This document shows positions 10,746 to 42,198 of a stretch of DNA of 64,000 bases, one piece after another. The notes below the pieces were generated by a model. That model did not search any database and was not told the origin of the DNA. It worked only from the letters and a program-made list of their open reading frames with translations. The stretch comes from Heterodontus francisci (taxonomy: Eukaryota), in NCBI RefSeq assembly GCF_036365525.1, contig NW_027140825.1, positions 1,364,001 through 1,428,000 on the forward strand. The letters run 5' to 3'. The position numbers and the translations under genes were made by a program. How positions within the stretch are numbered: position 1 is the stretch's first letter; the number at the start of each line of letters is the position of its first letter.

Positions 10746-10775
10746 AGATACAGATAGAAGCAGATAGATATTCAC

Positions 10776-16986: not shown

Positions 16987-17035
16987 CGAGAACGTAATCC
17001 CAGAGCCAAAGTAAGAGATCGAGGTCCCAGCTGAA
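16987..17035 (-). pseudogene. TRBJ: TRBJ pseudogene (SAGTSISYFGSG then about 7-nt deletion)
   Basis: CACAATG-12-TGTAAAACT. Only 12 nt lie between FGSG and the donor (19 in intact Js), so it is out of frame with C. Confidence 0.8.
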
Positions 17036-17059
17036 CACAATGTCACAGGCCAGTTGTAA

Positions 17060-18722: not shown

Positions 18723-18770
18723 CTGCTTCAAGGACTAGTTAGACAAACAAAGCCTTTAACATTTACATAC

Positions 18771-18826
18771 CCAAAACTGTGAGCTTGGTCCCTTGGCCAA
18801 AATATAATGGTTCGGTCTTTCCATAA
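18771..18826 (-). CDS. TRBJ: TRBJ segment (YGKTEPLYFGQGTKLTVL)
   Basis: CACAGTG-12-TACAAAACT, FGxG, gtatg donor. Confidence 0.95.
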
Positions 18827-19496: not shown

Positions 19497-19549
19497 CGAA
19501 AACTACTAACTTGGTCCCATCGCCAAAAGTATAATCGTAGTTATTTGAG
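19497..19549 (-). CDS. TRBJ: TRBJ segment (SNNYDYTFGDGTKLVVF)
   Basis: CACAGTG-12-GTTAAAACT, FGxG, gtagg donor. Confidence 0.95.
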
Positions 19550-20049
19550 CACAGTGATGCCTGTCAGTGTTAAAACTCCCATCTAGTTAGAAATGCTCAA
19601 ATGCACCGTCTTCGAAATGATGTACTCAAATTGTAGATTTACATACTATTAATGTGTGATGTAAAGACAGCGGCAATGCACCCTAGATATTGGACAGGAG
19701 AACAACAGGTTAATTATAGGGCCTGGTGGAGGTTACAGAGACAGCGAGGTTTGTCGGGATTGGAGGATATTGCAGGGATACGGAGAGTTATAGAGGCTGG
19801 AGGCGGTTACAGGGATAGGGAGGTTTGTAGGGGCCGGAGGACATTACAGGGACAGGGAGGCCTTGGGTTGAGTTGAAAACAAATGTGAAAGATATTTAAA
19901 CCAAGATATTGCAGGTCCAGCTGCCAATATAAATCGGCGAGGTGATTCTGTGACCGAGAACATGATGTATTTTAGAGCATCTAATTTCGTCTGAGAATCT
20001 CAAGGATCCTCATTAACGAAAACAACAAAAGCTTCAGTTCTGTGCTCAC

Positions 20050-20102
20050 CTAAAACAATCAATTTTGTCCCGTCACCGAAGTAATACAGAGTATTTCCTG
20101 TA
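20050..20102 (-). CDS. TRBJ: TRBJ segment (TGNTLYYFGDGTKLIVL)
   Basis: CACAATG-12-AGTATAACT, FGxG, gtgag donor. Confidence 0.93.
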
Positions 20103-21158
20103 CACAATGTTACATGACAATAGTATAACTACAGGTCGAAGAGCAATGAAGCTGGTGCACTGATGCAAAACCTCACACAGAATGCACTGGAGATTTGACT
20201 CTTTATGTCAAGGGCATTATAATGTTAATTAGAAATTCATTGTGAGGAATAGAAAGGGAAGTTCGTTACTCAGATAGTGGTAATAATGTGGAATGCACTA
20301 CCACAGGGAATGGGTTGAGATGGATTTTGGAGATGCTTTCAAGGAGTAAATTGGAAAAAGACATGGGAGAGAAAGGAATAGAAGATTAGATGAAGTAAGG
20401 GTGAGAGGAGGCTCGTGTGCAGTTTCACCACTGGCTTGCTTACACACTGTAAATTCTATATAATTAAATGTAATTATGATGTTTTATTTCACTCATTCTG
20501 GGGGAAGAATTATGACAGCATTTTTTGGAAACAAATAATCTGCCCTCTGAGAAAACGGTTAACAAATCTGCAACTCCCTTCCTGACAGGACTGTGGAAAA
20601 ACCTACACCCCATTGAGTGCAGGGGCGATGGTTGCAAAGTGATAATGTTACTGTGCTAGTAATATTCTGGTTCAAATCCCGAGGGTCGCCAGAGGAATTT
20701 AACTTCAACTGATAAATGAAAGTCTGGTTTAACTGCATGAAACTATCGTCAATTGTCAGAAAACCCCGTCTGTTGTCATTTAAGTGACTTCAGACTTCAG
20801 TTGACTCGCAACTGCCTTCTGAAATAGCAAACCACCCAGTCCAAGGGCAATTAGGGATGGGCAACAAATCTTGGCCTTGCCAGCGACGCCCACATCTGAT
20901 GAAAAATAATGAGCTAGCAGACCACTCAGAAGACAATCAGAGATGGGCAATAAATTCTGGACCAGATGCCACGAACGAATTAAAAAAATGTCTTTCCCTG
21001 TGCATCTTAGTATTTTCCATGTATTCTGGCTTTTATGCACATTGGAAATGCTGCCTGAAATTTTTGAGTTATTTGTCAATGCAACATTTCAGTTGCAAAC
21101 TGAAACTCAGAAACAGCGTGAGCTGCAATCATTGTTTTTCAAAGAACGTCCAACTCAC

Positions 21159-21211
21159 CCAACACAGTCAGTTTTGTCCCGTCACCAAAGAAATAGTCGT
21201 AGCTTCCAGAA
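21159..21211 (-). CDS. TRBJ: TRBJ segment (SGSYDYFFGDGTKLTVL)
   Basis: CACAGTG-12-TACTAAACT, FGxG, gtgagt donor. Confidence 0.95.
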
Positions 21212-21513
21212 CACAGTGTTTCAGCCCTGTTACTAAACTAGACTGGTCCCTGAAAAGTTGCCGAATATTTGAGTGAATAATACAGCTCTTGTTTGTTTGT
21301 CCATAGTAAGATAAATGGGAGAAACTTTCCCTTCTTTAAACACATATCCAGTTCAAGAATCAGTCTTTCTCCTTCTCTCTCTCTCTGTCTCTGTTTGTAT
21401 CTTAAATGCATTGGAAAAATGTCTTTCACCAATGAACCCGGAGCCTTAAACATCTTTCCGACCATTTCAGACAACATGCATTCTCAGAATTGGCCTAACA
21501 TTCCTGGACTCAC

Positions 21514-21563
21514 CTGTCACAACTAACTTGGTACCGCTTCCGAAGTAATATTGATAGCCAGAA
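21514..21563 (-). CDS. TRBJ: TRBJ segment (SGYQYYFGSGTKLVVT)
   Basis: CACAGTG-12-AACAAAACC, FGxG, gtgagt donor. Confidence 0.95.
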
Positions 21564-22610
21564 CACAGTGAGAGACCCTTGTAACAAAACCTCACAAGGC
21601 GAGGTGCAGGTCTTGTCTATATCACACTTGGACCCTGTCCTCGAAAGCGTTTGTTGATCACATCTCCTTAATTTATATATCTCCTAATTTACATTTGTGG
21701 CTCACGAGCAAGGTCATAGAATAAGAAATATACATCACTGAAGGGGAGACCATTCGGCCCATAGGACCTCTGCTGGCTTTATGAAAGGTTTTACCATCGT
21801 CCTGTATATTTCCCTTCGAGTATCTATCAATTTCCATTTTGAAAGTTTCTCCTGAACCAACTTCCACCACCAGTTCAGATATGCCTTCCCGATCACAGTA
21901 ACTACCTCTGTGGGAGAATGTCTCTTCATCCCGCCACTGGTCCTTTATGTCAATTGCCTCAAAACCTGTGTCCTCTGGTTACCGACCCATCTACCAATGG
22001 AGACTGTTTCTGATTATTAATTCTATCCAAAACCTTCACTAATTTGAACACCTCTATTCAATCTCCATTTAACCTTTTCTGTTCTCCAGTCTCTCCAACT
22101 ATCTGAGGTCCCTCATCTCTGGTACAATTCTGGTGAATCATTTCTGCTCCCAATCTAAGGCCTCGACAACCGTCATAAAGTGTGGTACCCAGGACTGAAC
22201 ACAATACTCCAGCTGGGACCTTACCAGTGATTTGTAAATGTTAATCCTCACTTCCTCACTCAACACCTCGTGAATTCTTAACCAATGATGGTGCGTTCCA
22301 GCATCATCAACTGGTCACTTCAAACATCTTGACCCTTTTTTTGACCAAGCTCTCTCTCTATCTCACTCCTCGCATTAAACCAATAGAGTAACATTCGGGA
22401 CAGGGGTAGGCCATTCAGAGTCTGATTTCCCAGACAGCTATCACTTGTTGATTTCCACACACACAATCGGTCATTGTGAAGAAACGGATGCAGCTGAATA
22501 GGGAATATTATTAGCGTTATCTTCATATATTAATCTTGTAAATTTCAATCAGACTATACCATATCAGACGTTGCGGAATGATTCTCACTGACGCCACGTT
22601 AATCAGTTAC

Positions 22611-22662
22611 CTAAAACCACGAGGTTTGTGCCATCGCCAAATGTATAGTCATTGTTCCCTGA
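22611..22662 (-). CDS. TRBJ: TRBJ segment (SGNNDYTFGDGTNLVVL)
   Basis: CACAATG-12-AACAAAGCT, FGxG, gtaac donor. Confidence 0.93.
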
Positions 22663-23094
22663 CACAATGTTACACAGTTGTAACAAAGCTAGGGAATCTT
22701 TAACTCTCTACACGGCGGTTAATTAAGCACAGTTGCATCGTTTTGTATTGGGTTGCATTTATTACCCCGCCCTTTCCCTCTTTACCTCTTTTTGTTATTT
22801 CTTTTGTTTTGTCTCGACCTCTCCCATCTTTGTCTCTCTAATTTTCCGTCCCCTTTTCCCTGCATTTTGCTCCCAATCTGTCTCTCTGTAGATAAGGTTT
22901 GCCTCCCTAACCTTCCTCCATTTCCACCTCGCCATTGCCCTATGTTTAGTTGTTTTCACTGTTGCTTCGTTACTCTTTGTTTTTTTCTAAAGTTTATGGT
23001 CTCTCCCCTTTCTTCAAACTGATGGGGACAAACTGGCCGACAGTTTTAATAATTACTGAGACCACTGATATGTTTCAACAAATATCTCACTCAC

Positions 23095-23152
23095 CCAGGA
23101 CTGTTAACTAAGTGCCGTCTCCAAAATATGATAGCTGGGTATTTCCTGCTCC
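23095..23152 (-). pseudogene. TRBJ: TRBJ pseudogene (GAGNTQLSYFGDGT*LTVL)
   Basis: In-frame TAG after FGDGT. RSS CACATCA-12-ACGAAAACA. Confidence 0.9.
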
Positions 23153-23702
23153 CACATCATCATGTGACAACACGAAAACATTCCTCAATAGCGCCCTGCC
23201 AGTTTTCAGTGTCCATCTCATTAATATTTGATATTGCCCTTTGACAAACATGAGCTGACCATACAACAAAGTACACGCATAAAATAACCGGGTGGGGAGG
23301 TGGGGGAGAGGGGGCTTGACCATTAAAGCCAGCAACATTCACAGTACCGTCTATCCATCCATCTGTGAATATGTTAGATGTCCACAGATACAGTGCTTAT
23401 AATACTGGAAGATTTTACATGGAGTTGTTCATAATTATTAATTAACTTCTACACTCAAGTTGGGGACCAGATAGCTCAGTTGGCGAACGTGCCAGTTTGA
23501 ACAATGCTTACAGAACGGGTTCATTTCTCACCGTGTCTGGGGAAGGCAAGGGGAAGCCTCCTCATAGACACTGCTCCACATTCATGCTCCTCTCTCCTGC
23601 TGGAGAAAAGGAGCAGAGAGCCAGTACATCAGATGACCACCAGCCTGCACAGACAAGATGAACCCAGCATCCCTGGCTTCATTGAATGAAGGTCTAACTC
23701 AC

Positions 23703-23759
23703 CCAATACTGTTAGAGCCGAACCTTCTCCAAAATGTAAAGGCTGGTCGCTCCCGCCTG
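23703..23759 (-). CDS. TRBJ: TRBJ segment (GGSDQPLHFGEGSALTVL)
   Basis: CACTATG-12-ACCAAAACA, FGxG, gtgagt donor. Confidence 0.92.
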
Positions 23760-23914
23760 CACTATGCTGAACAACATTACCAAAACACACCTTTGGATAG
23801 ACCGATACACCGACAGAAAAGTAGCTACGTAGATCGATAAACATAAAGATGGATACACAGACCGATACATTGTGGATGATGGAACAATAGATGTTTATAT
23901 AGATGCTAACGTAC

Positions 23915-23964
23915 CTAAAACAGTTAACTTGGTACCAGCTCCGAAGTAGTAAATATCAGAAGAG
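23915..23964 (-). CDS. TRBJ: TRBJ segment (SSDIYYFGAGTKLTVL)
   Basis: CACAAAG-12-ATCAAAACC, FGxG, gtacg donor. Confidence 0.93.
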
Positions 23965-25499
23965 CACAAAGCTAAATCCCTGCATCAAAACCTCTCACCT
24001 CTCTCTGATTCTTGTCCTGAAGGAGCCTTTCACAACTAGAAAGAACCTACAGGAGTATTGGCACAAAGGAACATAGAAATACTGTAGCTGGAGTAGGCCA
24101 TTCAGCCCGTCGAGCTTGTTCTGACATTCAGTGAGGTCATGAATCATCTGTATTGTAACCCCATTAGCCTGTTTGTGTTCCAGACCCTTTTCCTAACAAG
24201 GCTCTATCATTCTCAGATTGGGAAGTGACAATTGACCCTGTGGCCTCAGCAGTTTCATAGCGGAGAGAGGCCCAGATTTCCACCACCGTTTGTTCAGTTA
24301 TGTCCTTTCTGGCATCACCCCTGAACGGCCAAGCTTTAATGTTAAGCTAATGCTCCCCTCCACCCTCACCCTTGCTCTGGGCTCTGACACCCGCGTAAAT
24401 TGCAGCTCTATCTGCCCTATCGAATCCTCTCATTATCTTAAACACATCAGTTGGATCAATCCTTAATCTCCAATGCTCAACATCTCCAAGCAACCTGCCC
24501 CCATAATTTAATCCCGTCACCATTCTGGTAAATGAGGAAAGATCATTCGCAATCTGCCCTGGACTTTCAGCTCACGTTCCCCAGGCCGTTCAATGTGCAT
24601 TCAACACCCAGTGTCCATTCACAAACAAAAAAATCCCCTTTTATACTTCTCATCCATTCAAACGCTTCAGGATAATGGGGAATACATCAAATAACATCGA
24701 AGATTCAGCAGCGAACCAGACCATTCAGCCCACTACGTCCTAGCCGATTAAATGCTCCACATGATCCTTCTCACACCCTCTTCATCTCACCCCATCCTTT
24801 TAAAAGGTCATTTTATTCCTTTCTCCCCCATATGTTTATCCAGCTTCCCTCTTAAATACATCTCTGCTATTCGCCTCAGCCCACTCCCTGTGGTAGTGAG
24901 TTCCACATTCTCGCCACTCTCTGGTTGAAAAGGCTTCTCCTGAATTCCATATTTGATTTATTAGTGACTGTCTTATATTGATGGTCCCCTGGTTCTGGTC
25001 TCCTCAACAAGTGGAATCATCTTGCCTCTGTCATAATCTTAAAGACCTCGATCAGGTTATCCCCTCTGCCTTCTCTTTTCTGGAGAAAACAGCACCAGCC
25101 TCTTCATTCTTGACCTGTGGTTATATCCTCTCAATTTTGGGAGCACACTTGTAAATATGTTTTGTTTTGCTCTATCCAGAGCCTCTGCTTTTTAATCATA
25201 TGCAGTCCATAACGGCATACTGAAGAATTGAATCTGACAGTTTTCGTTCTGTGTCTGTGTCCTCTTGTTCTGTTCTCATTTGGAACTACATTGCTGTTTG
25301 TACTGTTTATTTTAGAGACCCTCCCTTATGTCCCCACTCAAACTCCTTTCCAAATGAATTCAGCAGTTGTAGGTCTCCCTTTTTAAGCCCAAGAGTCGAA
25401 ATTAATTCACCGAATTCCTAAATATTCACTCCCACGACCACCCCACGTGAATTCCCGAATTGAATCAACTTTTCCAGTGTTAGGAAGGCATTCACTCAC

Positions 25500-25549
25500 C
25501 TAAAACCACCAGTTTGGTCCCATCTCCGAAATATGCTTCTCTCGCATTA
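25500..25549 (-). CDS. TRBJ: TRBJ segment (NAREAYFGDGTKLVVL)
   Basis: CACAATG-12-CGCAAAATC, FGxG, gtgagt donor. Confidence 0.94.
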
Positions 25550-26913
25550 CACAATGGTATGGGGCTGTCGCAAAATCCCCCTCCAGTCTAGATTGTTAAG
25601 TCTATTCCATTGAAGTTCTGACTGTTTCAATGGCCCGTAAAGGGCGTAGGAACATGTGGACAGGAGGTGGCCGTTCAGCCCTTCGAGACTGTTCCACCAT
25701 GCAGTTAGATCAGGGTTGTTCTGAATCTTAACTCTATCATCCCACCTTGGTTCTGTAACTGTCAATACTTCTGTTTAACAAAAATCTAACAATCTTGAAT
25801 TTGAAATTATCAATCGACGCCCAGCCTCAACAGTATATTATTTTGTTGTGGGGGGTGCGGGGAGAGTTCCTGATATCACCCCTGAACGGCTCGAATTTAA
25901 ATCGTTCTGGACTCCCCCCAACCTGAAGAAGCAGTTTCTCTCTATCTATCCAACACCTCAAGCTCCTCGATTATATCAGCCCTTTAATGATCTCGATTGT
26001 AGATCTTTTGTCAATGATTTTAAATATCTGACCTTTGTTTATTGACCCATCCACCAGTAGAAATAATTTCCCCTTCAAGTAATTGTCCAGTCCCCCTTTT
26101 GAAAGTTACTATTGAGTCTGTTTGCACCACCCTTTCAGGCAGCGCATTCCAGATAACAACACACCGCATAATTGTTTTATTCTTCATATCACCCCTGTTT
26201 ATTTTGTCAATTACCTTAACTCTGTGCCCTTTGTTTACCAACGCTTCGAGCATTGGAAATTGTTTCTGAGCATGTACTGTGTCCAAAGCCTTCATTGCTT
26301 TGGACACCTCTGTCAAATCCCCCCTAAACTTTCTCTGCTCTAGTCTCTAGACGCAACTGAAGACCCTCATCGCTGGAACCAGTCGAATAAATCATTCGTG
26401 CAACCACTCTAAGGCCTTGACATCCATCCTAACATGTGACACCCACAATTCTCCAGCTGGGACCTAACCAGCGATTCATCGAGGTTCAGCTTAACTCCCT
26501 TGCTCAACTCCTCGTCAATCCTTCTTTAACGAAGGTACTTTCCAGCTTCTTCAACTCTTTATTCTAAATTTCTTGATTGTCACGTATTTGTCCCTGTACC
26601 TCACTCCTATCATCAACTCGCATTACGCCGATTTAGCTACATTAGGGACTGGATTAGGCCATTCAACCTCTGATATCCAAGGTACTTATCACATGTCGAT
26701 TTCCACATGCACAATACGTCTCTAGTTTGTTTCAGGAAATATTCCATATGGGGCTCGGAAGTAATGCATGAAGCCGGAACACAAATACAAGGTGTATGTT
26801 TATATATAAGGTCCTCATATCCACAACTAGGTTTGAATAATTTTAAATTTCAACTAGACATCCCTCTGATTCCACTTTCCTTTAAAGAGCTAATTCGATT
26901 CTATCTCACTTAC

Positions 26914-26965
26914 CTAAAACCATGAGTTTTGAATTACCCCCAAAAGTATAACCATCGTTGCCTGA
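26914..26965 (-). pseudogene. TRBJ: TRBJ, probably non-rearranging (SGNDGYTFGGNSKLMVL)
   Basis: Heptamer CGCAATG breaks the invariant CAC, and FGGN replaces FGxG. Donor is intact. Confidence 0.8.
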
Positions 26966-27705
26966 CGCAATGTTACACTTTTGTATCAGAACTCGCGTTT
27001 CTTTAACTCGATACACAATAGTTAATGAACATAGTTGGAACATTTTGCCTTGTGTTATATTCATTATTCCACCCTATTGCTCTTTATCTTATATTCTGTT
27101 ACAATTGATCTCCTTGTCTCTGTCTCTTTTTCACTGTTTTAAATCTAATTTCCCATCTCCCTCCAGTTTTGTCTGATGTTTGCTCTCCATCTGGAGTGAA
27201 GAAGAATGGGGGATGATGGTCTGGGAAATTCTAAGATTCAGAGGGCGCTTGACAGGGTAAATGCTGAGAGGATGTTCCCCTGTAGAATTAAAGGGCGCAG
27301 TTTCAGAATGAGGGGTCGCTCATTTAGGACGGAGTGGAGGAGGAATTTCTTCGATCAGGGAGTCGTGAATCTTTGGAATTCCCTACTCCACAGCGCTGTG
27401 GAGGCTGAGTCCGTGAATGCATTCAAACTGAGATAGAGAGCAGAGCCAAGGATTATGGAGAACAGGTAGGAAAGAGGGATCGAGGCCAACATCAGATCAG
27501 CCATGATCTCTGGTTGTAAATTCCTCTCTCACCAGCCCTCCTCCAATCTCCTACATTTAGCTATTTAAATTCTTGCTTCTTCAATGCAATGCTTACTCTT
27601 TTGCCTGTTTTCACATTCTCTCTCCTTTCTTTAAATTGAAGAGACTAAACTAGTCGACGTTTGCAATGCTAGTAAGAGACATATTTTGACGAACATCTCA
27701 CTTAC

Positions 27706-27764
27706 CCAGGACTGTTAATTTAGAGCCATCTCCAAAATACACAAGGCTGAATACTCCCTGCTCC
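27706..27764 (-). CDS. TRBJ: TRBJ segment (GVFSLVYFGDGSKLTVL)
   Basis: CACATCA-12-ACAAAAACA, FGxG, gtaagt donor. Confidence 0.9.
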
Positions 27765-28108
27765 CACATCATCACCTCACATCACAAAAACATTCCCCAA
27801 CTCTCTTCTGGAAGAAAAGAAATTCACTGCCCCATTCCTTAATATTTGATAGTGGCCTCTGGTTAACGCAAGCTTACTGTAAGTTAATGTAAACTGGTGG
27901 ACTAACCAGGCAGTTTGCAGTTATAACTCTCAGAATTCCCAAGACTGTCTGCCCCGTCTAAATGTGGACCTGTTAGTCAGTTATCCACCGTGGCAGTCCT
28001 GACAATAGGAGATTTTCTCTAAGTCCCTCCCAATTATTCATTCAATCCTTCTTGCAAGATGTTTACAGGTGACCCTTGCTTCATTGAAAACAAAGAAACT
28101 GAACTCAC

Positions 28109-28165
28109 CCAAAATCGTCAACTTGGACCCGTCCCCAAAATGTAGCAGGTTGGTATACCCGCCCG
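28109..28165 (-). CDS. TRBJ: TRBJ segment (GGYTNLLHFGDGSKLTIL)
   Basis: CACTGCA-12-ACCAAAATA, FGxG, gtgagt donor. Confidence 0.88.
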
Positions 28166-28376
28166 CACTGCACTAAGCAACAATACCAAAATACAACGAT
28201 GGGTAGACAGATGTATGGACAGACAAATAGATAAGTAGATGGACAAACAGACAGACAGATGGATCCACAGACCAACAAATAGATAGGTACATTGATAGAT
28301 AAAGAAATAGAAAGACTTACAGATGAAAAGAGATGTTTACATATATAAATATCTACATGTGCAAACATAATCTTAC

Positions 28377-28426
28377 CTAAAACAGTGAGTTTAGTCCCAG
28401 CTCCGAAATAATAAATGTCACCAGAG
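28377..28426 (-). CDS. TRBJ: TRBJ segment (SGDIYYFGAGTKLTVL)
   Basis: CACAATG-12-ATTAAAACA, FGxG, gtaag donor. Confidence 0.94.
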
Positions 28427-29935
28427 CACAATGATAAACTCATGTATTAAAACATCACCTGTCTTTGAGTCCTTTTCCGAAGGAGCCCCTCATAATAAGG
28501 GAGAACCGACAAGTATAAGGAAATTTTGTCCAAAGGAACATAGCAACTGGGGAACAGGAGTTGACCATTCAGCCCTTCGTGCTTATTCCGACATTTAATT
28601 AGATTATAAATCAATTGTACCTTAACGCCTTCGACCTGCCTTCTTGGTTCCATAACCTTTAGCATCTTTGCTGATCAAAAAATCATCAACCACACATTTG
28701 AAATTTTCGACTGACTCCCTCAGCTTTCTGTGGGAGAGATTTCTGGATTCCACAGGGCATTTTGTAAACAGGTCCTTCTTGACGTCACTCCTGAATGGTC
28801 AAGCTATCAGTTTAAGGTTTTGCTCTCTTGTTCTGGACCCGTCACACCAGAGGAAATATCAGATCCTATCATTATCTTAAACACATCAATTGGATCACTC
28901 CTGAATCTCCAATTCTCAATTTACTGCAACCCTACTTTAAACAACACATCGTCATAAATTAAATTATTTTGATTCCGGTATTATCCTGGTGAATGAGGAA
29001 AGGTCATGGGGCCCTTGACACCTCATTGTCCACTGGATATGGATAGCTCACCAGTTCGATTAGTAACTTGAAAATAGTGTGTCTCAAAACAGTTTCATCC
29101 ATTGCCGCACGAGGCCAAGAGGGAATATATAGAATTACATAGAATTTACAACACACAAACAGGCCATTCAGCCCATCTGCTCCATACCAGTGTTTACACT
29201 CCACTTGAGACTCCCCTCATCCCCTTCATTTAATCCAATTTTTTTTATCCAATCTACTTTTTTAAACCCACTCCTTGTGGTAGTGAGTTCCACATTCGCA
29301 CCACTGTCTGGGTAAAGAAATTTCTCCTGAATTCCCTTTTGAATTTATTACTGAGTGTCTGACATTTATGCTCTCCCCGTTCTGGTCTCCCCACAAGTGG
29401 AAAAAACTTCGGTGTGTCTACCCTATCGAAACCCCTTTCAAAATCGTACAGAACTCTACCAGGTCACCCCTCAAACTTTACTGCTCTCGAGAACGGAGTC
29501 CCAGTCTGTCCGACCTTCTCCAATAGTTCCAACGTCCCAGTTTGGGCAGCACAGCTGTTAATCTGTTTTGTTTTACCTTATCCAGAGCCTCTACATCATT
29601 TATTTTATAATATGCAGACCAGAACTGCATACTGAACGATGCAATCTGACATTTTTCGTTCTATGTCTGTGTCCTCTTGTTTTGCTCTCACAAGCGCAAT
29701 CATTCTATTTGTATCTACATTACTGTTTGTTCTGTTTATTTTCGCGACCCTCCCTTATGTATCTACTCAAAACCCTTCCCTGCAGTGAAACGAATTCGGC
29801 AGTTGTAGGTCTCCCCTTGTAAGCTGAAGAATTGAAATTAATTCACCAAATTTCTATATTTTCACCCCCTCGACCACCTCACGTGAATTCCCAAATTGAA
29901 TCAACTTTTCCAGTGTTAGGAATGCATTCACTCAC

Positions 29936-29985
29936 CTAAAACCACCAGTTTGGTCCCATCTCCGAAATATGCTTCGTAATTGGAG
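29936..29985 (-). CDS. TRBJ: TRBJ segment (SNYEAYFGDGTKLVVL)
   Basis: CACACTG-12-CACAAAATC, FGxG, gtgagt donor. Confidence 0.94.
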
Positions 29986-30599
29986 CACACTGGTATGGGG
30001 CTGTCACAAAATCCCCTTCAATCCCTCTCGACTGTTAAGTCTGTTCCATTGAAGTTCCTATTATGTCAATGACCGTAAAGGTCGGTGGAACATGGGGACA
30101 GAAGGTGACCGTTCAGCCCTTTGATCAGTTCGATCAAGGTTGATCTGAATCTTAACTCCATCAATCCGCCTTGGTTCTGTAACCCTCAATACTTTTGTTT
30201 TACACAGCTCTATCAATCTTGGATTTGTATTTATCAATTGACCCTCAGTCTCAACTGATTGTTTTTTATGGGGTCGGGGTGGAATCCATCATTTCCACTA
30301 ACCTTTGCATGAAGAAGTGCTTCCTGATATCATCCCTGAATGGCAATAATTTAAACTGTTCTGGACTCCCCGCAACCTGAGGAAGCAGTTTCTCTCTCTA
30401 TCTATCCAACACCTCAAACCCCTCCATGATATCAGCCCTTAAAATTCTATATTCGAGGGACTGTCAGCTTCGTCTGAGTAACCAGTCCTCATGAGTTAAC
30501 CCTTTAATGTATCTAATATCTGAACATTACTCCTGGTGCTTTTTTAACTGAACATAGATTCTGATCGATTGGAGGAACAGAAATACATAGTCGCCTTAC

Positions 30600-30647
30600 C
30601 CAACACTGTCAACTTGGTCCCATCGCCAAAGTAAGCTATCTCTGCTG
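30600..30647 (-). CDS. TRBJ: TRBJ segment (AEIAYFGDGTKLTVL)
   Basis: CACGATG-12-TCATGAACA (weak nonamer), FGxG, gtaagg donor. Confidence 0.9.
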
Positions 30648-30889
30648 CACGATGCTCTAAACTCAGTCATGAACAGACCCGGGAGATGTTCCCCTTGTAA
30701 CTGAACGAGACAGGACGGGGTGGTTTACAGACGAGGGTCATATTGGACTGGTCTTTGCAAACCAGAAAGAAGGGCCAGTGTCATCAGCCTGACTTTTTAA
30801 ACCGCCCGCGGAGGGTTGTGGCAGAACAAGCTTGGAATGCAAACAGCTGGACATGAAGGGAGTGGGAAAAAAACGTCCCTTTTTCTTAC

Positions 30890-30940
30890 CTAACACCGTC
30901 AGTTTGGTGCCGGTCCCGAAGTTGAGTGGTGCGTTGTTAG
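30890..30940 (-). CDS. TRBJ: TRBJ segment, D-proximal (NNAPLNFGTGTKLTVL)
   Basis: CACGTCA-12-ACATCAACC, FGxG, gtaag donor. Confidence 0.92.
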
Positions 30941-31465
30941 CACGTCAGCAGATCTCGTTACATCAACCCGGTCGGAAACTGATTGCTAAAACTGACCTGC
31001 TCAGCATTTCGGAAGCACTGGTCAAGATTATCAGGACGTACAAAGCAGCTTACAGCCAATGAAGCAGTTTGTTTATGAAGTGGTCACCACAGGGAGACAC
31101 AGCAACTGATATTGTACCAAGAAAGTCCCATCAAACAATAGTGAGATTAATGAGCAGATCATTGTTTGTGATGTTGGTTGAGGGATCAATATTGGTCCCA
31201 GGACACCAGGGTGGGGTTTAAAGGTTAAAGAGTTACCAGTTTCCACACAAATGACACACAGTTATTCTCTTTTCCAGAGGAATATTCTAACTTATAAGGC
31301 TGGACCATTCTGAGACATCTTTAAGATGAAAAGGGCCCAGTTCCCGCCATAATCCTGGGCCATGTTGACTCCTTTACTCTGTTGTCACTGCTCTTCTGCT
31401 GATCCTCCACCAGGTGTGTAGAGCGAGGTTTTTGTACGGAGGTTGCATTGGATTTTATCACCGTG

Positions 31466-31478
31466 TCCCTGTTGTCCC
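31466..31478 (-). CDS. TRBD: TRBD segment GGGACAACAGGGA
   Basis: 5' 12-RSS (31479-31506, CACAGTG-12-ACAAAAAAG) and 3' 23-RSS (31427-31465, CACGGTG-23-ACAAAAACC). The GGGACA start is typical of D-beta. Confidence 0.97.
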
Positions 31479-31624
31479 CACAGTGATAGACACTCATACA
31501 AAAAAGAGGAACGCGAAATTTACAAGTCCCCGCCGCTTAAACGGCTCCCGAGGCTTTCACCTGGTGACGGCAGTTGAGATTGAGCTGCTGAAATTTAGTT
31601 AGACCTTTGTAGCACAATTAAAGG

Positions 31625-33124
31625 GCATTCAGCCCCTCTCAAATCTGTTTCACATGAACAGGAGGAGGACATTCAACCCCTCTCCAGTCTGTTACACAGG
31701 AACAGGAGGAGGACATTCAACCCCTCTCCAGTCTGTTACACAGGAACAGGAGGAGGACATTCAGCCCCTCTCCAGTGTGTTACACAGTAACAGAAGGAGG
31801 ACATTCAGCCCCTCTCGAGCCTGCTACAAAGGAACAGGAGGGGGACATTCAGCCCCAATGCAGTCTGTTACACATGAACAGGAGGAGGACATTCAGCACC
31901 TCTCCAGTCTGCCACACAGGAACAGGAGGAGGACATTCAGCCCCTCTCGAGCCAGTTACACAGGAACAGGAGGAGGACATTCAGCCCCTCTCCAGTCTGT
32001 TACACAGGAACAGGAGGAGGACATTCAACCCCTCTCCAGTCTGTTACACAGGAACAGGAGGAGGACATTCAGCCCCTCTCCAGTGTGTTACACAGGAACA
32101 GAAGGAGGACATTCAGCCCCTCTCGAGCCTGTTACACAGGAACAGGAGGAGGACATTCAGCCCCTCTCGAGCCAGTTACACAGGAACAGGAGGAGGACAT
32201 TCAGCCCCTCTCCAGTCTGTTTCACATGAACAGGAGGAGGACATTCAGCCCCTCTCCAGTCTGTTACACAGGAACAGGAGGAGGACATTCAACCCCTCTC
32301 CAGTCTGTTACACAGGAACAGGAGGAGGACATTCAGCCCCTCTCCAGTGTGTTACACAGTAACAGAAGGAGGACATTCAGCCCCTCTCGAGCCTGCTACA
32401 AAGGAACAGGAGGGGGACATTCAGCCCCAATGCAGTCTGTTACACATGAACAGGAGGAGGACATTCAGCACCTCTCCAGTCTGCCACACAGGAACAGGAG
32501 GAGGACATTCAGCCCCTCTCGAGCCAGTTACACAGGAACAGGAGGAGGACATTCAGCCCCTCTCCAGTCTGTTACACAGGAACAGGAGGAGGACATTCAA
32601 CCCCTCTCCAGTCTGTTACACAGGAACAGGAGGAGGACATTCAGCCCCTCTCCAGTGTGTTACACAGGAACAGAAGGAGGACATTCAGCCCCTCTCGAGC
32701 CTGTTACACAGGAACAGGAGGAGGACATTCAGCCCCTCTCGAGCCTGTTACACAGGAACAGAAGGTGGATATTCAGCCCTTCTCCAGCCTGCTACACAGG
32801 AACAGGAGGAGGACATTCAGCCCCTCTCCAGTCTGCCACACAGGAACAGGAGGAGGACATTCAACCCCACTCGAGCCTGTTACACAGGAACAGGAGGAGG
32901 ACATTCAGCCCCTCTCCAGTCTGTTACACAGGAACAGGAGGAGGACATTCAGCCCCTCTCCAGTCTGTTACACAGGAACAGGAGGAGGACATTCAGCCCC
33001 TCTCCATTGTGTTACACAGGAAAAGAAGGAGGACATTCAGCCCCTCTCGAGCCTGTTACACAGGAACAGGAGGAGGACATTCAGCCCCTCTTGAATCTGT
33101 TACACCGGAACAGGAGGAGGCCAT
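31625..33124. repeat. 44-bp minisatellite (ACACAGGAACAGGAGGAGGACATTCAGCCCCTCTCCAGTCTGTT), ends in N gap
   Basis: About 34 visible units with period 44 and a 572-bp higher-order duplication. Confidence 0.97.
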
Positions 33125-34499
33125 NNNNNNNNNNNNNNNNNNNNNNNNNNNNNNNNNNNNNNNNNNNNNNNNNNNNNNNNNNNNNNNNNNNNNNNNNNNN
33201 NNNNNNNNNNNNNNNNNNNNNNNNNNNNNNNNNNNNNNNNNNNNNNNNNNNNNNNNNNNNNNNNNNNNNNNNNNNNNNNNNNNNNNNNNNNNCTTTCTGT
33301 CCCTCTCAATTCACCCCTTATCCCAATCCCTGCCTCCGTTCCTTACCCTTTTCTTTACCTGCATTGTCCCTCCACAACCTGCAGGATCTCAGGAAGCACC
33401 AGCTACGGGAACACACTTAATGTATACAGTAAATCGTGTACACTGCAATCTCTTCACCTATCACTCAGAGAGTCCCAGGTCTGCCAAACCAGTGATGTGC
33501 AAGTTCCCAGGTGTTCTGTTGCGGTGCTGTTATCATTTCAGCTGATCTGTCTGCACACCAACAGCCATCGCCCATGCACCTGGTCCTCAACTCTAACATT
33601 GAGGGTTTTACTCTTTTGTTCGGTTCTGATGCTGCTTGCTCTTCAGATGAAGGTAACGCGAGGTTCTGGGTTGAAGAGGTTCAAAAAATTTCTAACGATA
33701 AAGGCGGACGTTGAATGAAGGATTGGGATATGGACACAAAACATTTTCAAAGAAAGGCGATTATGGAGTCATCAAAGTAAGTACATTTCCCTTTGTCCTT
33801 TTGCAAACATGGCACAAAGTAGGAATCCATTGCTGCTTCTAAAAGTTCCCTGGACATGATAGAGCGATGAGAAGTCATGTTAAACTTGTATAGAATCTTC
33901 CTTAGACCACAGTTAGAGCACTTTTCCCAGTTCTGGTATTCATTTTAAAGAGATATAGAGATACAGGAGAAGGGGCAAAAAAGGAATGACAAGGATGATA
34001 TCAGAACTGAGAGGTTATAATGATCAGGAAGGGCTGTAAAGAGAAGGCTGAGGGGGTGATCTGATGGATGGATTTAAGATTATGAAAGAGTTTTTGATAG
34101 GGTAGACGTGCAAAAGATGTTTTCACTTGTGGGGGAGTCAGGAACTCCGAACCATCAATAGAAAGATAGTCACTAATAAATAAAATCGGGAATTCAGGAG
34201 AAACTTCTTTACCCAGAGAGTGGGAGGATGTAGGGAGTGGGATAAGGCGAATAGCGGAGATGTATTCAAGAGGGAATCTGGATAAACAAATGGGGGTGGG
34301 GCAGATTTGGAAGGATCTACTGATGGGGTGAGATGAAGACGGGAGCGAGGAAGCTCGTGTGGAGGATGAACGGCAGCATGAATGTGTTGGGCCGAATGGC
34401 CTGTTTCTTTGCGATTTACCTCAGGACACAGTCCAAGTGATGTAGTGCGTCTCACCTGAGAAGGCAGACCAGCCGCTGATTTAAAATCTCAGGTGCAAA

Positions 34500-35313
34500 T
34501 TCAGCACTCCCTCTGTACTGACCCTCTGAAAGTGCAGCAATCCCACAGTACTGATCCTTTGAGAGTACAGCACTCCCTCAGTACTGACCCTCGGACAGTG
34601 CAGCAATTCCTCAGTACTGACACTCTGACAGTACAGCACTCCCTCACTACTGACCCTCTGACAGTGCGGCACTCCCTCAGTACTGACCCTCTGACAGTGC
34701 AGCACTCCCTCAGTACGGACACTCTGACAGTGCAGCACTCCCTCAGTACTGACCCTCTTAGAGTGCAGCACTCCCTCAGTACTGACACTCTGACAGAGCA
34801 GCACTCCCTCAGTACTGACCCTCTGACAGTGCAGTGCACCCTCAGTACTGACCCTCTGACAGTGCAGCACTCCCTCAGTGCTGACCATCTGACGGTGCGG
34901 CACTCCCTCAGTACTGACACTCTGACAGTGCAGCACTCCCTCAGTACAGACACTCTGACAGTGCAGTGCTCCCTCAGTATTGACCCTCTGACAGTGCAGC
35001 ACTCCCTCAGTACTAACCCTCTGACAGTGCAGCACTCCCTCAGTACTGACCCTCGGACAGTGCAGCACTCGCTCAGTACTGACACTCTGACTGTGCAGCA
35101 CTCCCTCAGTACTGACCCTCTGACAGTGCAGCACTCCCTCAGTGCTGACCATCTGATGGTGCGGCACTCCCTCAGTACTGACACTCTGACAGTGCAGCAC
35201 TCACTCAGTACTGACCCTCCAACAGTGCAGCACTCCCTCAGTACTGACCCTCTGACAGTGCAGCACTCCCTCAGTACTGACCCTCCAACAGTGCAGCACT
35301 CCCTCAGTACTGA
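34500..35313. repeat. 33-bp minisatellite (CAGCACTCCCTCAGTACTGACCCTCTGACAGTG)
   Basis: About 24 units. The 11-aa periodic ORFs are artefacts. Confidence 0.97.
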
Positions 35314-36637
35314 ATTGACGAAGTTGGCTGCATTGGCGATCGATGGGCGGTAAGTGGCGCTATTGCTCCACTAATCCTGATCACTTCTTCATTTCTCGGC
35401 CGTTCCTTCCTCTGACAGCGACCTCAGCTCTGCCATTCCCTCCCAAACCCCCTCCACATCTCTCTCCTCCAAACCTGCCCGGCTTTGGCCCACACCTCCT
35501 AACAATTTCAGCTGTAACCCTGTGTCAAATAGTTGGCAGATTTACGCTGTTCGGGCCGTTTATCTCGGGACGGTGAAGTCGCTATTTAAATGCAAACTGC
35601 AGCTGTTTAATTACACGCTCGTGCTGACCTGTGAACAGGAGGCTTATGACTTGGAACATGTCTTCCAGAAACGGATTCTGTCGGCAGTTTTGATTTACGT
35701 TTCTTCCACGGGGGGACACGAATTAAACTCGTCACAGAAAATTTGATTCGAATTTGTCACGATCGGGATTTCGCGTCCTGTTGCTCTAGTTTTCAGCACT
35801 TGTATGCTGTCGCTTGATGTAACGTCCTCTTAAAATCTATCACCATCCTCCTCACGGTTCACAAAACTGCAAAGTTTGCAATTGTGCCCTGCACACACAA
35901 GTCTAGGTTATTAATATCGATCAAGACAAGCAGTGGTCCCTGGAGAACCCCACTATATACCTTCTTTCAGACTGAACACCAACTGTTTACCACTACTCTG
36001 TTCCATGTTGCTTTGTATCCATGTTGCTAATGCCCCTTTTATTCCATGGGCTTTAACTTTGCTGACAAGCCTGTTATGTAGTACTTTTTGAAACGCTTTT
36101 TTTGAAGTTCATGTACACCACATCAGCCGCATTACCCTCATTAACCCTCTCTGTTACCTCATCAAGATATGTGTATCCGACTCTTGGTTTCCTGATTAGT
36201 CCACAGAGTGCTGGTTGTTTCAAAAGGCCGTGCAGTATTCATCATCTCCACAGATGGGAGAACCTCAAAGCATCTTGTATGACTGACCACTTCCTCTGAT
36301 GTGTCTTTAAATATCAGAAGTGGTTTAGTGGGGAGCACCTCGGCACTGAGTCAGAGGTTTGTGGGTTTAAGTCCCCGGACCGAGATTTAAGCATAAAAAC
36401 GAGGCTGACACCCCCAGTGCAGGACAGAGGAAGTGCTGCACCGTGTGGAGGTGTAGCACCGAGGTACTCTCTTTATTTTGGCTGAGATGTTAAAACGAGG
36501 TCCCGACTGCAGATGGGAAGGATCTCATAGCCACTATTTCGGAGAATAACAGGGGCATTCTCGAGGGTTATCTGGGGCAATAGACATCCCTGAACCAACT
36601 TTACTAAAACAGATTATCTGGTCATTCTCGGTTTCCA

Positions 36638-36742
36638 CCAGGAGATGGCGCAGTACTCCGCAGATCTCGTGGCTGCAAATGGAATTCGAGCAGATGTCAG
36701 ACAATGAATTTCCATTCAGCGAGTGATCGCGCCCTCTGGCGG
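36638..36742. promoter_or_regulatory. Pair of oppositely oriented candidate CTCF sites between V and D
   Basis: CCAGGAGATGGCGC (+, 36638-36651) and CCGCCAGAGGGCGC (-, 36729-36742). Confidence 0.65.
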
Positions 36743-37479
36743 CCGCAGAGGGAATACGATGAAGTCTGAATAATTTTCATCACCATTCACCATTTGGATC
36801 ATTCTTCTGGCGTTACCGAGTCGCAGCCGGAGTGTGATCAATGCTACCTACTTCCAGTGAGATGTAGGATTATTTATTGCCATGTGCAAAGATGACCAGA
36901 TGGTGACAAGTGGAGCGAAACTCACCCCTCCGCTACCAGTATTGGATCCAAGATGCATCAGTTGGAATTCATTCCTGGTTATGTGCATTCACCTCACATT
37001 GAAATTTCGAGACAGGGTGCCGACCGGGAGTTTTATAACGCTGCTCGATCTTGGACCCTGCAAGTACAGGGTTACTATCTTGTTGGCACGTGGAAAAGAC
37101 TTCTGATCTGCGTCCCTGCAATTTTGCTTCAATCCTCAGAGAACACATCAGCTAAGGAACTCACTTTCGACTCCACTGGCATAATGGAGGTTGGAAATGT
37201 GCACAGCATCTCGAATCCGTAAAGGCTGGAGGACATCTGACCGTCAGGAGCCCATTAAAAGTCTTCCACTTCATAAAAGCTAAAGAAAAGAAATGACGGA
37301 ATGTTGTAGATTTCGGGAACTCCAGTCCAATCTGAAAATATCTGGGTCTGTAGTAAAAGTGGTCGAGCAACAGGGTGAGTAATTTCAATAACAACATTCT
37401 TCCCATTATTGATATTGCAAGAGGGACCCGTGTATATGAATGAGAGCAATTTTACATCAATGTACAACAAGGAATTAGG

Positions 37480-38125
37480 AAGGCGAGTAACATGTTAGCT
37501 TTTATTGTAAGGCGTTTGAAACATAAGAGTAAGGAAATCTTTCTGCAGCTAGTTGGGACTTTGGTAACAAAACACCTATAGTGTTGTGTAGAGTGTTGCT
37601 CTCCTTATCTACGGAAGCATGTATTTGCCTTAGAGGAGGTTGCAACGAAGGTTCACTCAATTGGTTCCAAGGAGGAGAAGGCTGCCCAATGAGGAGAAAT
37701 TGAGTCGAATGGGCTGTTATTCTCTGGAAGAATCAGAGGTGATCCATTTGAAACGTACAAAATTATGAGAGTGTTTGACAGGGTACACACTGAGAGGCTG
37801 CTTCCCCCCTGGCTGGAGAACCTAGAAATAAGGGGAAGAAGCTTCAGGATAAGGGGTCCATCTACAACACTTAGATGAGGAGGAATGTCTTCACTCAGAG
37901 GGTTATGACTCTTTGGAATTCAGAGAGCTGTGGAATTCTCAGTCATTGAGAAAATTGAAGACATGAGATCCATAGATTTTAGGCACCAAGGGAATCCAGG
38001 GATGTAGGAATATGGCGGGAAAGTGGAGTGAAGGTAGCAGATCCTCAAGATCTTCATTATGTGGAGGAGCAGACACGGCGGGCCGAATGGCTTACTCCTG
38101 CTCCTATTTTCTAATGTTCTGATGT
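37480..38125 (+). mobile_element. Degenerate CR1 LINE 3' fragment
   Basis: Nucleotide similarity to the CR1 copy at 52860-53480. Confidence 0.7.
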
Positions 38126-40119
38126 AAGTGGTTCCTGCGCGTTTGCAGTGTCAGATCATTGTGTCACCACAGCACATACGGTGTAAAATATTATCTTTCT
38201 CTTCCGGTCTAACCCGTGTTTCACTTGACCATGAAGTCACATCATGGGAAACCCTGAAGCCAGTTACATCCCAACAGATCTTGATAAGGGAAGTTTGTAG
38301 ATTTCAGTGCAATTTCCAGGCAATCGGAATGAATTATAATCAGAGCAGAGAAGGTTAAGGGACCCTGCGGAAGGTGGTGTTGGAAATCAGGAAGGATTTT
38401 GATAAATTGAACAGGGAGAAGCTGTTTTCTGAGGCAGGAAGGTCGTTAACCAGGGAGGCGCTGATTTAGGGTCAGTGGCAAAAGAACCAGAAGCGGGACG
38501 AGGAGAAAGATTCTGAGTGGGACGGGTATTAATGATCTGGAACACATCGCCTGAAAGGGCAGTGGAATGGGATTCAGCTTTCAAAAGGGAATTGGATAGA
38601 TCCTTGGAGCAGACGATTTCCAGGGCTAGGGCAAAAGGGCAGGAGAGTGGGACTAACTGGATAGATTTTTCACAAAAGCAAGCAGAGGCGGGAAGATCTC
38701 CTTTCTGTTGAATCTTTCTGTGATGCTAAAATGTGGACAGATCAGAAAGGAACAACTTGACATCATTGCCTTTATTTAAGAAAAGTAAAACTATTCTCCA
38801 CCCTTTGGCATATGAAACGTGACAACAAAGATATTGGGAGTCTGTGAACCTTATCTGTTATCTCTATGGGTGCATTCTCACTGCAGACAGGGTTCCAGTC
38901 AAGCAAACCCTACTTATATGGCTGTGTTGGAGTAGGAACTGCGCTGGGACAAATTCCTCCCAGGACGCCAAGGAATTCTGTCAAGAGCAGGCTGGTTATC
39001 ATCTCAACAGGTCAGTGTTGAAGAGGTTTAACATGACATGTGGAAGTATGTCAATGAGACACCGGTCATTCTTTTTTCAATAGGGGCCCTAAGACTGTCT
39101 TCGCCCCTGGTATTGATCCATCCATATCCAGATTTGATAGATTTCCTTCAGTGAGGAACCGTTTTGGGATGCAGTCGATGATTAAGTGGAGACATGACAT
39201 GTGACAAGAGCTGCCAGCTTGGGAGGAACAGGAACTTTGGGCCTGGCATTTTGGTGCATTCCCCGCCTCATGTCTGGGCCCTGTTGTGGATCAAGTCACC
39301 GCAATTGGTTTATTTCTGTTCATTTACGGGATGAGGGCTGGCGAGGGCTACGTTTATTCCCAGGTCTAAAAGCTCTTAAGCAGACTTCTTCTTGAATGCA
39401 ACTCCGTGGCTGACTAGGCCCATTCCTCACGGCAGTTAAGGGTGAACAGCACTGCTGCCGGGGTCTGGAGTCACTGAGAGTTCAGACTGGGTGAGGGAGG
39501 CAAAATTCCTTCCCTAAAGGATATCACTGAACCAGGTGGCTCTTTCCGCCAATCCAGCAGCTTTATGCTGAGCATCATTGCTGGAATACAACTACTGTTA
39601 CAAAGGCTGCCATCATCAACAACGACATTATTGGTCGACAAGGATGTCAGAAGGTGAACGAGGTGTCCTGGCTATTTTGGCATCTGGCAAAGGCTGCGTT
39701 CCGAAGCCTGCCTCTTCAGAATGCAGCCTTCCATACCAGTGCCCTGTTTAGCTTAGTGATAAAACCCAACACAGTTTAATTCAGAGAGTACAGATCTGAG
39801 AGATGCCGGATAAACCTTATTCTTGAGATTCACTGTGACACCAGTGACAGTCTCAGTCAGCTCGATGGACCCTCCACCAGTTGGACCATGTTTCAGCTGA
39901 AAGCCCGGCGCCAGCGCCTGGGAGTTCCTGCTGCGAATTCGTTAGACCAAAGTACGTGAACTGAATGCAGTTGTGAGACAGTGCGTTCAAGGAAGGTGGG
40001 GATTGCTCTACCTAGGGATATCGGAATATAATTTCTGAAGATGAGATGGATACATTAGCGGTTTGTCAATAAAAAAGATACTGTTACGCAGATTAACCAC
40101 AAGCATTATTCATGGTTGG

Positions 40120-40780
40120 CGCTGGACAGGTTGAGAGAGCAGTTAATAAAGCATACAGTATCCTGGGCTTTATTAAAAGGGGCAGAGAGTACAAGAGCAT
40201 GGAAGTAAGTTGAACTTGTACAAGACACTAGTTCGACCTCAGCTGGAGTATTGTGTCCAGTTCTGGGAGCCGCACTTGAGGAAAGAAATGAAAGAATTGG
40301 AGAGAGTGAGGGAAAGATTCAGGAGAATGGTTCCACGGGTGAGGGACCTCAGTTATGATGATAGATTGGAGAAGTTGGGATTGTTTTCCTTGGAGGAGAG
40401 AAGGCTAAGAGGTGATTTGATAGAGGGATTCAAAATCATGAGGTGTCGGGACAGAACAGATAGAGAGAAACTGCTCCCACTCGTGAAAGGATGGAGAATG
40501 AGAGGGCACAGATTTAAACTAATTGGAAAAAGAAGTAAAAGTGACATGAGGAAAAAATTGTTTCACACAGCGAGTGGTTAATGTCTGGAGTGCAGGCCCA
40601 GAGAGTATGATGAGGGCACGTTCAATCGGGGCATTCAAAAGGGACTTATGAAAAAGGAAGAATGTGCAGGGTTACGGGAAGAAGGCGGGGGAATGGGACT
40701 AAGTGAATTGCTCATTCGGAGGGCCAGTTCTGACACGATGGGCCGAATGGCCTCCTGTACTGTACCAATTCTCTGATTCT
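40120..40780 (+). mobile_element. CR1 LINE 3' fragment
   Basis: LYKTLVRPQLEYCVQFW..LEKLGLFSLEERRLRGDLIE. Confidence 0.9.
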
Positions 40781-41536
40781 GTGATGAGGAATGTCGATGA
40801 TAAGTGGCAGTAACTTGATTGCTAACCAGATGATCAAAATTGGGTAAAATTTGTGATAAACACAACAATGGTCAGTTTAAACGGTACAGGGTGATATTCT
40901 AAGACAATAACATGTATCTATCCATCGGAACTTTGATAGTTCTGTCTTTCAGCAGAACCAAGCCATCTATTTATCACTTTAAGAGCTGCTTGCAAGCTGA
41001 AAGATAGAGATGCAGACTCACACAGACAATACCAGCACAGCTGAAGAGATTTTTCTTTTAACTTGTTGAGTTATTTTGATCAGGAATGCGATGCCTGAAA
41101 GGATGGAGGAAGCAAATTCAGCAGTAAATTAGAAAGGAGATTGGGAAATATATTTGAACAGGAAATATCTGCCGCCCATTGAGGAAAGAGCAGGAGAGTG
41201 GGATGAAATAAGTAGATCTTCCGAAGTGATGGCACAGGAACGATGGGCCGAATTGCCTCCTCTGTCCTGTATGATTGTCCAATTCTTTGCAGATTATTTC
41301 ATCCGCTTTGGAAAGTACTGAAGTGTGGAACTGGATTTTGAGCTGTCTCTCTGGGAGCACTGAGAAACTATTGGATTATTTCTACACTCTGAAAGTTGTT
41401 GGAAAACTCTGCAAAGTTTCATCAATGAACAGCTGTCTTTATGAGCTCTGCTTACTTGAGTTTTCCTCTCTAACACTCACAGTATAAGAGGGTGGTATGT
41501 TTTTGACGCAGCCCTGCTCCTGTTTGAATCACTGTG

Positions 41537-42198
41537 ATCACTAGCAGCACAGTAATACACCGCCCTGTCAGTCTGATCCACCCTCAGTATTTTCAGGCTG
41601 CAGGTTTTAAGATCGGGTCTGGTGGCTTTAAATCTCTCCTTGAAACCCTCTGCAGGCGTTGAATCAGAGGTACCAACCGAGGTCACTATGAGCTGCAACC
41701 CTGCTCCGCTGTGCTGGCGATACCAGTACATGTAGTTCTCGTTGGTGTCATTCTGGAAACAGTGCATTTCCGCCGTTTTCCCCTCTGCGACCGTCAGCCG
41801 GTTCCCCCACTGGGTAACGACAGCGCTCCTGGACCGGGCTGTGGAGGAACATGAGAAACATATCGGGTCAAAAAGAACAGACACAATAAGGAGAGAGAGA
41901 GAGATTTAATGGTAAACCTCCCGATGCACACCACAGTCGATCAGCTCGCTGACGCCCCAGCACAGGGGTCATGTGCTGATTCCCAGAATCGCTGGGCACA
42001 ACTGCAGCGGCGCTAAATAACGACACTTGTCCTCAACAGCAAAACCAAACCAGTAAATCTCTAACTGATTGGAGCCCTTCGATATCAGCAGGAATTGTGT
42101 CTCAAAGCTGATTAACTGGGGCCTGAATTTCCCTCCAAGTAGAAGCAGTAACCTGGGAGCAGCAGAAACAGTAGATGGAGGTAAACAGTGCACAGCAT
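41537..42198 (-). CDS. TRBV: TRBV gene, D-proximal (leader 42153-42198, V exon 41537-41838)
   Basis: Leader MLCTVYLHLLFLLLP. V exon has C..YMYWYRQ..DRAVYYCAAS. RSS CACAGTG-23-TCAAAAACA (41498-41536). Confidence 0.96.

Follow-up and report, generated by a model that had tools for sequence, protein, structure and literature searches.

Loop-extrusion control of V(D)J recombination has, in the parts of the literature covered here, been worked out in mouse only. A compact and multi-copy-looking shark locus, in which V lies 10 kb from D with no long spacer between them, raises the question of whether a barrier has to make up for the lack of distance. Such a locus lies in a 64,000-nucleotide stretch of Heterodontus francisci (horn shark) DNA, hereafter the window, in whose coordinates all positions are given. 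An initial annotation had proposed that two CTCF motifs on opposite strands, lying between V and D in this window, form an insulator analogous to the IGCR1 element of the mammalian IgH locus.

The horn shark TCR-beta cluster

The window contains an antigen-receptor cluster on the minus strand, across which an RSS scan gave the pattern V23-12D23-12J. Six V exons carry RSSs with 23-bp spacers (at 41536, 44595, 46154, 55399, 57410 and 62066, all on the minus strand). The most D-proximal V-beta is composed of a leader, V exon and 23-RSS (41498 to 42198, minus strand; RSS at 41498-41536), and the five further V segments past it reach ~62.4 kb; the array may extend beyond the end of the 64-kb window. 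A single D-beta (31466 to 31478, minus strand), with a 12-RSS on its V side and a 23-RSS on its J side, has the only D-like RSS pair in the window and is separated from the proximal V-beta by 10.06 kb. The J-beta array (16380 to 30950, minus strand) has at least 18 segments with 12-RSSs, 17 of them in the feature list and one more at 17010. The J at 23125 has an in-frame stop inside the segment, and a J-like remnant lacking the FGXG motif is found at ~11560-11610 (minus strand), directly upstream of the first C exon. The C-beta exons (8333 to 11468, minus strand) were recognized by the similarity of the first exon to shark proteins. Six of its 14 protein matches, at 99-100% identity, are all from Heterodontus francisci, one being titled TCR beta chain-like, and the remaining eight are from other sharks at 56-60% identity. 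On the RSS pattern together with these C exon matches, the cluster is horn shark TCR-beta, which bears out the placement of the motif pair in the V-D interval of a shark TCR locus.

The surroundings of D contain several further features. The most motif-diverse 300-bp window, with six factor types and a CpG observed/expected ratio (o/e) of 0.75, lies between D and the first J (30800-31100) and is a candidate 3' D promoter by its motif content. On the other side, a 44-bp tandem array of 34 copies (31622-33124) begins ~140 bp from D, occupies the place where a D promoter would be expected, and stops at a gap of 168 N (33125-33292), an unsequenced stretch of the D-side interval. A 33-bp tandem array of 25 copies (34502-35313) has a motif in common with the body of a SINE that adjoins the CTCF motifs.

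Near-identical C-beta sequences were found in five horn shark gene models on four scaffolds that differ in length, and two Heptranchias and two Pristiophorus C-beta gene models are also among the matches. From these models, TCR-beta seems to be multi-cluster in several sharks, haplotype duplicates being the alternative. Multi-copy horn shark TCR-beta has reportedly been noted before. A review describes shark TCR loci as translocons (PMC6795676), and no description of multi-copy horn shark TCR-beta was found in the searched portions of the literature, including PMC1845163, PMC11754216 and that review.

Two CTCF motifs facing each other between V and D

The window was scanned with a 19-column CTCF matrix (after JASPAR MA0139.1). 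The strongest match in the window, site B, lies on the minus strand at 36727 to 36745 (21.03 bits, p=5e-8), and the fourth strongest, site A, on the plus strand at 36635 to 36653 (17.07 bits, p=9e-7). The core of site B (36730-36742) has no mismatches to the degenerate CTCF consensus, and that of site A (36638-36650) has one. The cores are 79 bp apart, the 19-mers 73 bp and the centres 92 bp, and the 73-bp spacer (36654 to 36726) contains one E-box-like hexamer at 36691. By the usual CTCF orientation convention, site A, the D-side member, faces the V array and site B, the V-side member, faces D-J-C, so that the two sites are convergent. The initial annotation had described two strong motifs about 80 bp apart on opposite strands, one facing V and the other D-J-C, face-to-face rather than divergent, and the strands, spacing and ranks agree with it on each of these points; the outer ends of the two cores (36638 and 36742) coincide with the limits it gave. 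Its statement that the pair lies midway, about 5 kb from either side, holds as to distance (D is 5157 bp away and the V heptamer 4785 bp) and is only approximate, because the D-side distance crosses the 168-N gap and two tandem arrays.

Only four sites in the 64-kb matrix scan score 17 bits or more. When the window was shuffled block-wise with dinucleotide composition retained (n=300), a pair of matches of at least 17.07 bits within 200 bp was obtained in 0 of 300 shuffles; the mean number of matches at that score was 0.17, and no shuffle had four. Local shuffles of 36601-36900 (n=20,000) gave one match in 12 cases and two in none, and column-permuted matrices run on the real sequence gave such a pair in 1 of 1,000. 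The PWM scores that the annotation had called for, 21.0 and 17.1 bits in rounded form, thus identify a pair that is absent from both sets of shuffles, and the motif pair exceeds chance expectation by matrix score. The count of plain degenerate consensus matches is not significant (four found, 1.9 expected; 18 of 100 shuffles reach four). Position between V and D is by itself weak evidence for a role: 61,079 CTCF sites are given for human (PMC7422557), and at human density a 10-kb interval has a site ~18% of the time.

That the pair is not a unit, with only site B bound as a single tandem-type anchor, or with neither site bound and the match due to chance, is distinctly improbable in our judgement. 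Consistent with this reading are the disfavoured base in the core of site A (column 8, -2.0 bits), a second and weaker register of site A 3 bp off (12.0 bits), the non-significant consensus count, and a CTCF match of 17.5 bits at 63624 that is part of a repeat fragment, its counterpart at 37727-37827 being a bin of high depth, from which it follows that real DNA reaches such scores by other routes. The local shuffles speak against it, both in the rarity of site A and in the absence of both sites together, as does the retention of CpG across both sites.

This retention defines a low-copy patch around the pair (36627 to 36850) with 15 CpG in 224 bp (o/e 1.03). The o/e is 1.08 over 36627-36760 vs 0.40 window-wide, and 36631-36830 has 14 CpG vs a mean of 3.9 per 200 bp, 10 of 630 200-bp windows having 11 or more. 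CpG retention at an o/e of ~1 would be expected of a protected site. The small CpG-rich patch noted in the initial annotation is real, and a second low-copy patch 0.8 kb from the pair (35450-35850, o/e 1.01) is equally rich. A contig of sequencing run X5 starts within it, at 35628, and it is a possible promoter or regulatory element.

Directly adjoining the pair is a 3'-truncated, tRNA-headed SINE on the plus strand (36316 to 36626; A box at 36321, B box at 36364), which resembles shark SacSINE1/Deu-SINE, its putative family. Four of 14 sequencing runs were aligned to the window at 80% likeness, and their summed depth is not to be equated with copy number. Of the 14, 10 have no library description, and none is described as ChIP or ATAC. 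Summed depth in run X1 is 15,355 in 36413-36629 vs 111 in 36630-36846, and 84 and 81 in the two bins that follow. SINE copies diverge from the window at 36626 (35 records in X5 and 15 in X6), 9 bp before site A, and beyond that point the letters of other SINE copies match the window at 9 of 30 places, as compared by eye. Given this 100-fold step at the SINE end, the motifs do not lie inside the high-copy element. Together with the SINE end at 36626 and the finding of no second copy of the pair sequence elsewhere within the window, it excludes a repeat-borne origin of both motifs, one of the outcomes that the initial annotation had named as fatal to its proposal. SINEs of the SacSINE1 type are treated in PMC5499810.

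Other origins of the pair were also rejected. An inverted-repeat search found no long inverted repeat connecting motifs A and B, and an RNA fold over the pair (z -2.34, reached by 5 of 200 shuffles) leaves A unpaired with B, which excludes a MITE or hairpin origin. A structured RNA was excluded in that no RNA family covers the motifs; a sub-threshold U6 snRNA-like match at 38308-38409 (23 bits, E 0.018) is probably a pseudogene or chance. A coding function was excluded as well, since the 55-residue frame across the motifs matches 2 of 17 candidate proteins, both of them chimeric horn shark gene models.

The repeats in the interval bear on a further alternative, that the pair, instead of blocking RAG scanning, is mainly a chromatin barrier by which silent chromatin seeded by repeats in the V-D interval is held off from the active chromatin of D-J or V. 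Repeats that could seed such silencing are present in the interval (the 34 copies of the 44-bp array, the 25 copies of the 33-bp array, the SINE and several high-depth repeat fragments), and in mouse the transition to the silent chromatin upstream is made sharper by the D-J-beta CBEs (10.1101/2024.10.13.618029). Repeats flank the pair on both sides, however, so that it marks no single clean edge, and we consider a barrier as the main function very unlikely. A barrier role is compatible with that of a loop anchor and could be secondary to it.

More weight, though still on the side of unlikely, is given to the possibility that the pair is bound but generic, a clustered CTCF site of the 2xCTS type that belongs to a small promoter or enhancer, possibly that of a non-coding transcript, and has no particular V(D)J role. 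Closely spaced CTCF pairs are typical of promoters and enhancers (PMC4562119), and the pair resembles the 2xCTS class in consisting of two close motifs, able to share one ChIP peak, in CpG-rich DNA. That class calls for two motifs of p<1e-4, both no farther than 100 bp from a peak summit, and as far as motifs go the shark pair agrees with this; the class itself is defined by occupancy, by a CTCF homodimer or by CTCF-BORIS, at promoters and enhancers that are active, and BORIS is dated to amniotes (PMC5973138). The second CpG patch 0.8 kb off would fit a generic site, as would the exons of two automated gene models that overlie the motifs, although these models are chimeras of V, intergenic DNA and C. 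Summed depth in run X5 is 33-121 in the low-copy bins of 35.5-37.7 kb vs 8-20 in most at 38.1-40.1 kb, but X5 depth is a poor measure of expression, the run may contain DNA and its contigs are strandless. Against a generic site are also the GC content at the pair, which is only 51-55%, and the scarcity of motifs for other factors there.

Run X5, which is RNA by guess and has paralog letters, is deeper over 35545-37714 than in most of the low-copy bins closer to V. Non-coding RNA may be transcribed across the pair.

The gene models also allow the pair to be compared with other clusters. Model P0005 agrees with the window locus in every aligned exon. In model P0006 (V identity 83.5%), 22 of 22 residues of the frame across site A are retained, as are 38 of 38 at 37167-37280 and 95% at 39534-39650, with 27 of 35 and 39 of 49 elsewhere, in a comparison made at the residue level, to which silent positions are invisible. 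This shows from protein-level matches that the context of site A is present in a second cluster and that identity there is not special to site A. Site B was found in no paralog among the gene models compared. Divergence between paralogs over 35600-41100 is patchy, with identical stretches beside ~20% residue change (models P0003 and P0006), as gene conversion would give. Run X6, from another organism, aligns at ~93-94% identity over much of 37.5-41.5 kb and has almost no depth over 36630-37497, a hole in depth that proves nothing; among the 40 differences listed (there are 810 further), none falls in 36585-37001. RAD run X11 has no coverage of the pair.

A third motif beyond C and the predicted loop domain

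The second strongest CTCF match in the window (18.65 bits, p=3e-7) lies on the plus strand at 3964 to 3982, 4.35 kb past the last C exon, and faces V. No repeat match was found over this motif within the window. Three of the four strongest matches in 64 kb thus flank the D-J-C block, and site B and the motif at 3964 are convergent across a 32.8-kb span that takes in D, every J, C and a candidate enhancer. The motif at 3964, which the initial annotation left unmentioned, is a likely loop partner of site B. That this convergent partner sits at the position of mouse CBE3 argues against a generic site without a V(D)J role. On the V side, no strong convergent partner for site A was found in unique sequence of the window: the best D-facing matches (41.5-64 kb) are the 17.5-bit match in the repeat fragment at 63624, which was dropped as a partner because it is repeat-borne, one of 13.0 bits, and two of 12.7 bits within a tandem array.

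Between C and the third motif, 4500 to 4950 was selected by its position and by E-box and RUNX-like matches as a weak candidate for an E-beta-like enhancer; its CpG o/e is 0.57 and it falls outside the top 12 motif-dense windows. The order of C, candidate enhancer and CTCF motif (3964-3982) is the order in mouse Tcrb.

From the motifs, their orientation and position, their low copy number and the third site, we infer CTCF binding, looping, an enhancer and an effect on recombination. The likeliest of the readings considered, and one that we see as evenly poised between right and wrong, is that CTCF at the pair would anchor loops in both directions, holding RAG and the enhancer within a D-J-C domain of 33 kb and reducing the use of proximal V. 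D-J-C and the enhancer would form one domain of the cluster and the V genes another. Cohesin loaded close to the enhancer is predicted to pass site A and stop at site B, and site B and the motif at 3964 would close a ~33-kb loop that holds the enhancer to the D promoter and restricts RAG scanning to D and J. Cohesin coming from the V side would run past site B and halt at site A, so that more distant V genes would be tethered there, and RAG scanning from J or D would pause ahead of the first V. By the 12/23 rule, the RSS pattern would let the 23-RSS of the proximal V join J directly; the predicted effect of the pair is that D joins J before V does, and that the V just 10 kb away from D is over-used less.

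The convergent order of the pair counts against its reading as a loop anchor, IGCR1 and mouse CBE1/CBE2 both being divergent. Divergent CTCF patterns mark boundaries, and in human short-range convergent patterns are depleted at 5-100 kb and non-significant below 4 kb (PMC7422557); insulation does not strictly require divergent order (PMC9279147), and TAD borders in skate obey the orientation code of CTCF (PMC10115646). With 73 bp between the sites, the swap in order is expected to have little effect, because cohesin would pass the first site and stop at the second, with the consequence that the two loops would overlap by ~110 bp. On the arrangement of the motifs, an insulator-like role of the pair is plausible. 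The pair also poses the question of whether a very close convergent pair is as good an insulator as a divergent one. A lack of either binding or conservation would make it an ordinary intergenic CTCF-like site.

Comparison with CTCF elements of other antigen-receptor loci

CTCF ChIP-seq in shark has reportedly been carried out. CTCF elements in a shark antigen-receptor locus were not found described in a literature search made at the title and abstract level and covering few subscription journals. If a matching three-site frame in shark TCR-beta is true, loop-extrusion control of V(D)J recombination would date back to the shark-mammal split. We put forward, as a tentative and on balance unlikely extension, that jawed vertebrates ancestrally framed the TCR-beta recombination centre with CTCF, placing two sites of opposite orientation upstream of D and one facing V past the enhancer, that sharks already use this design, and that its horn shark form, a face-to-face two-way gate of 73 bp, has been copied into each of several clusters. 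The face-to-face order has no counterpart among the mouse elements compared, as these are described in the sources cited.

In mouse, each of the four large antigen-receptor loci places 1-4 CTCF sites of varying orientation between V and D/J (PMC5859386), so that an element of this kind is to be expected. In IGCR1 the two sites are divergent, and the one on the D side forms loops with 3' sites (PMC7930373, PMC4995090); the loops of IGCR1 and INT2-TEA confine RAG tracking (PMC4995090). Like IGCR1, the shark pair places two CTCF motifs of opposite orientation between V and D, and its D-J-C-facing site has a convergent partner downstream of C (at 3964-3982, as a motif only). Unlike IGCR1, the shark pair is convergent, its sites are 73 bp apart and it belongs to another locus; the function of IGCR1 is proven by mutation, whereas that of the shark pair is predicted. 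Of the features of IGCR1, the V-D position, the opposite strands and the downstream partner are shared, and the divergent hallmark is not; the shark pair is not classed as IGCR1 because its order is not divergent, and mouse Tcrb is the nearer parallel.

Tcrd INT1-INT2 is likewise a CTCF pair between V and D in a TCR locus, one site of which loops to a downstream convergent site, but both INT sites are described as facing TEA (PMC5859386) and the locus is delta, not beta. In Igk the Sis pair lies between V and J, with one site facing V and one facing away (PMC5859386), although Sis and Cer belong to a light-chain locus without D.

In mouse Tcrb, upstream of D-beta1 lie 5'PC (at 27 kb) and CBE1 (at 3 kb), past E-beta lies CBE3, and all of them face V (PMC10772921), while CBE2, between CBE1 and D-beta1, faces D-J-C; deletion of CBE1 leads to more proximal V use, with E-beta acting upstream (10.1101/2024.10.13.618029). 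The locus is of the same type as that of the shark, and in both cases sites facing opposite ways are found within a few kb of D-beta on its upstream side (3 kb for CBE1, 5.2 kb for the shark pair). Both also have a V-facing site beyond C and an enhancer (CBE3 in mouse, the motif at 3964 in shark, where the enhancer is only a candidate). The arrangements differ in that the V-facing site is V-proximal in mouse, giving a divergent pair, and D-proximal in shark, giving a convergent one: the D-J-C-facing site B sits on the V side of site A, and not between the V-facing site and D as CBE2 does. The D-J-C-facing site is, unlike in mouse, the stronger member of the shark pair. V lies 10 kb from D in shark vs 250 kb in mouse, and no trypsinogen-like frame was seen by eye in the shark V-D interval. 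Since an inverted divergent pair stays divergent, shared descent of both sites would need turnover of sites. Given the third V-facing site beyond C and the candidate enhancer, the closest parallel is mouse Tcrb CBE1/CBE2 with CBE3 and not IgH IGCR1, and by analogy the shark pair plausibly works like mouse Tcrb CBE1 or IGCR1.
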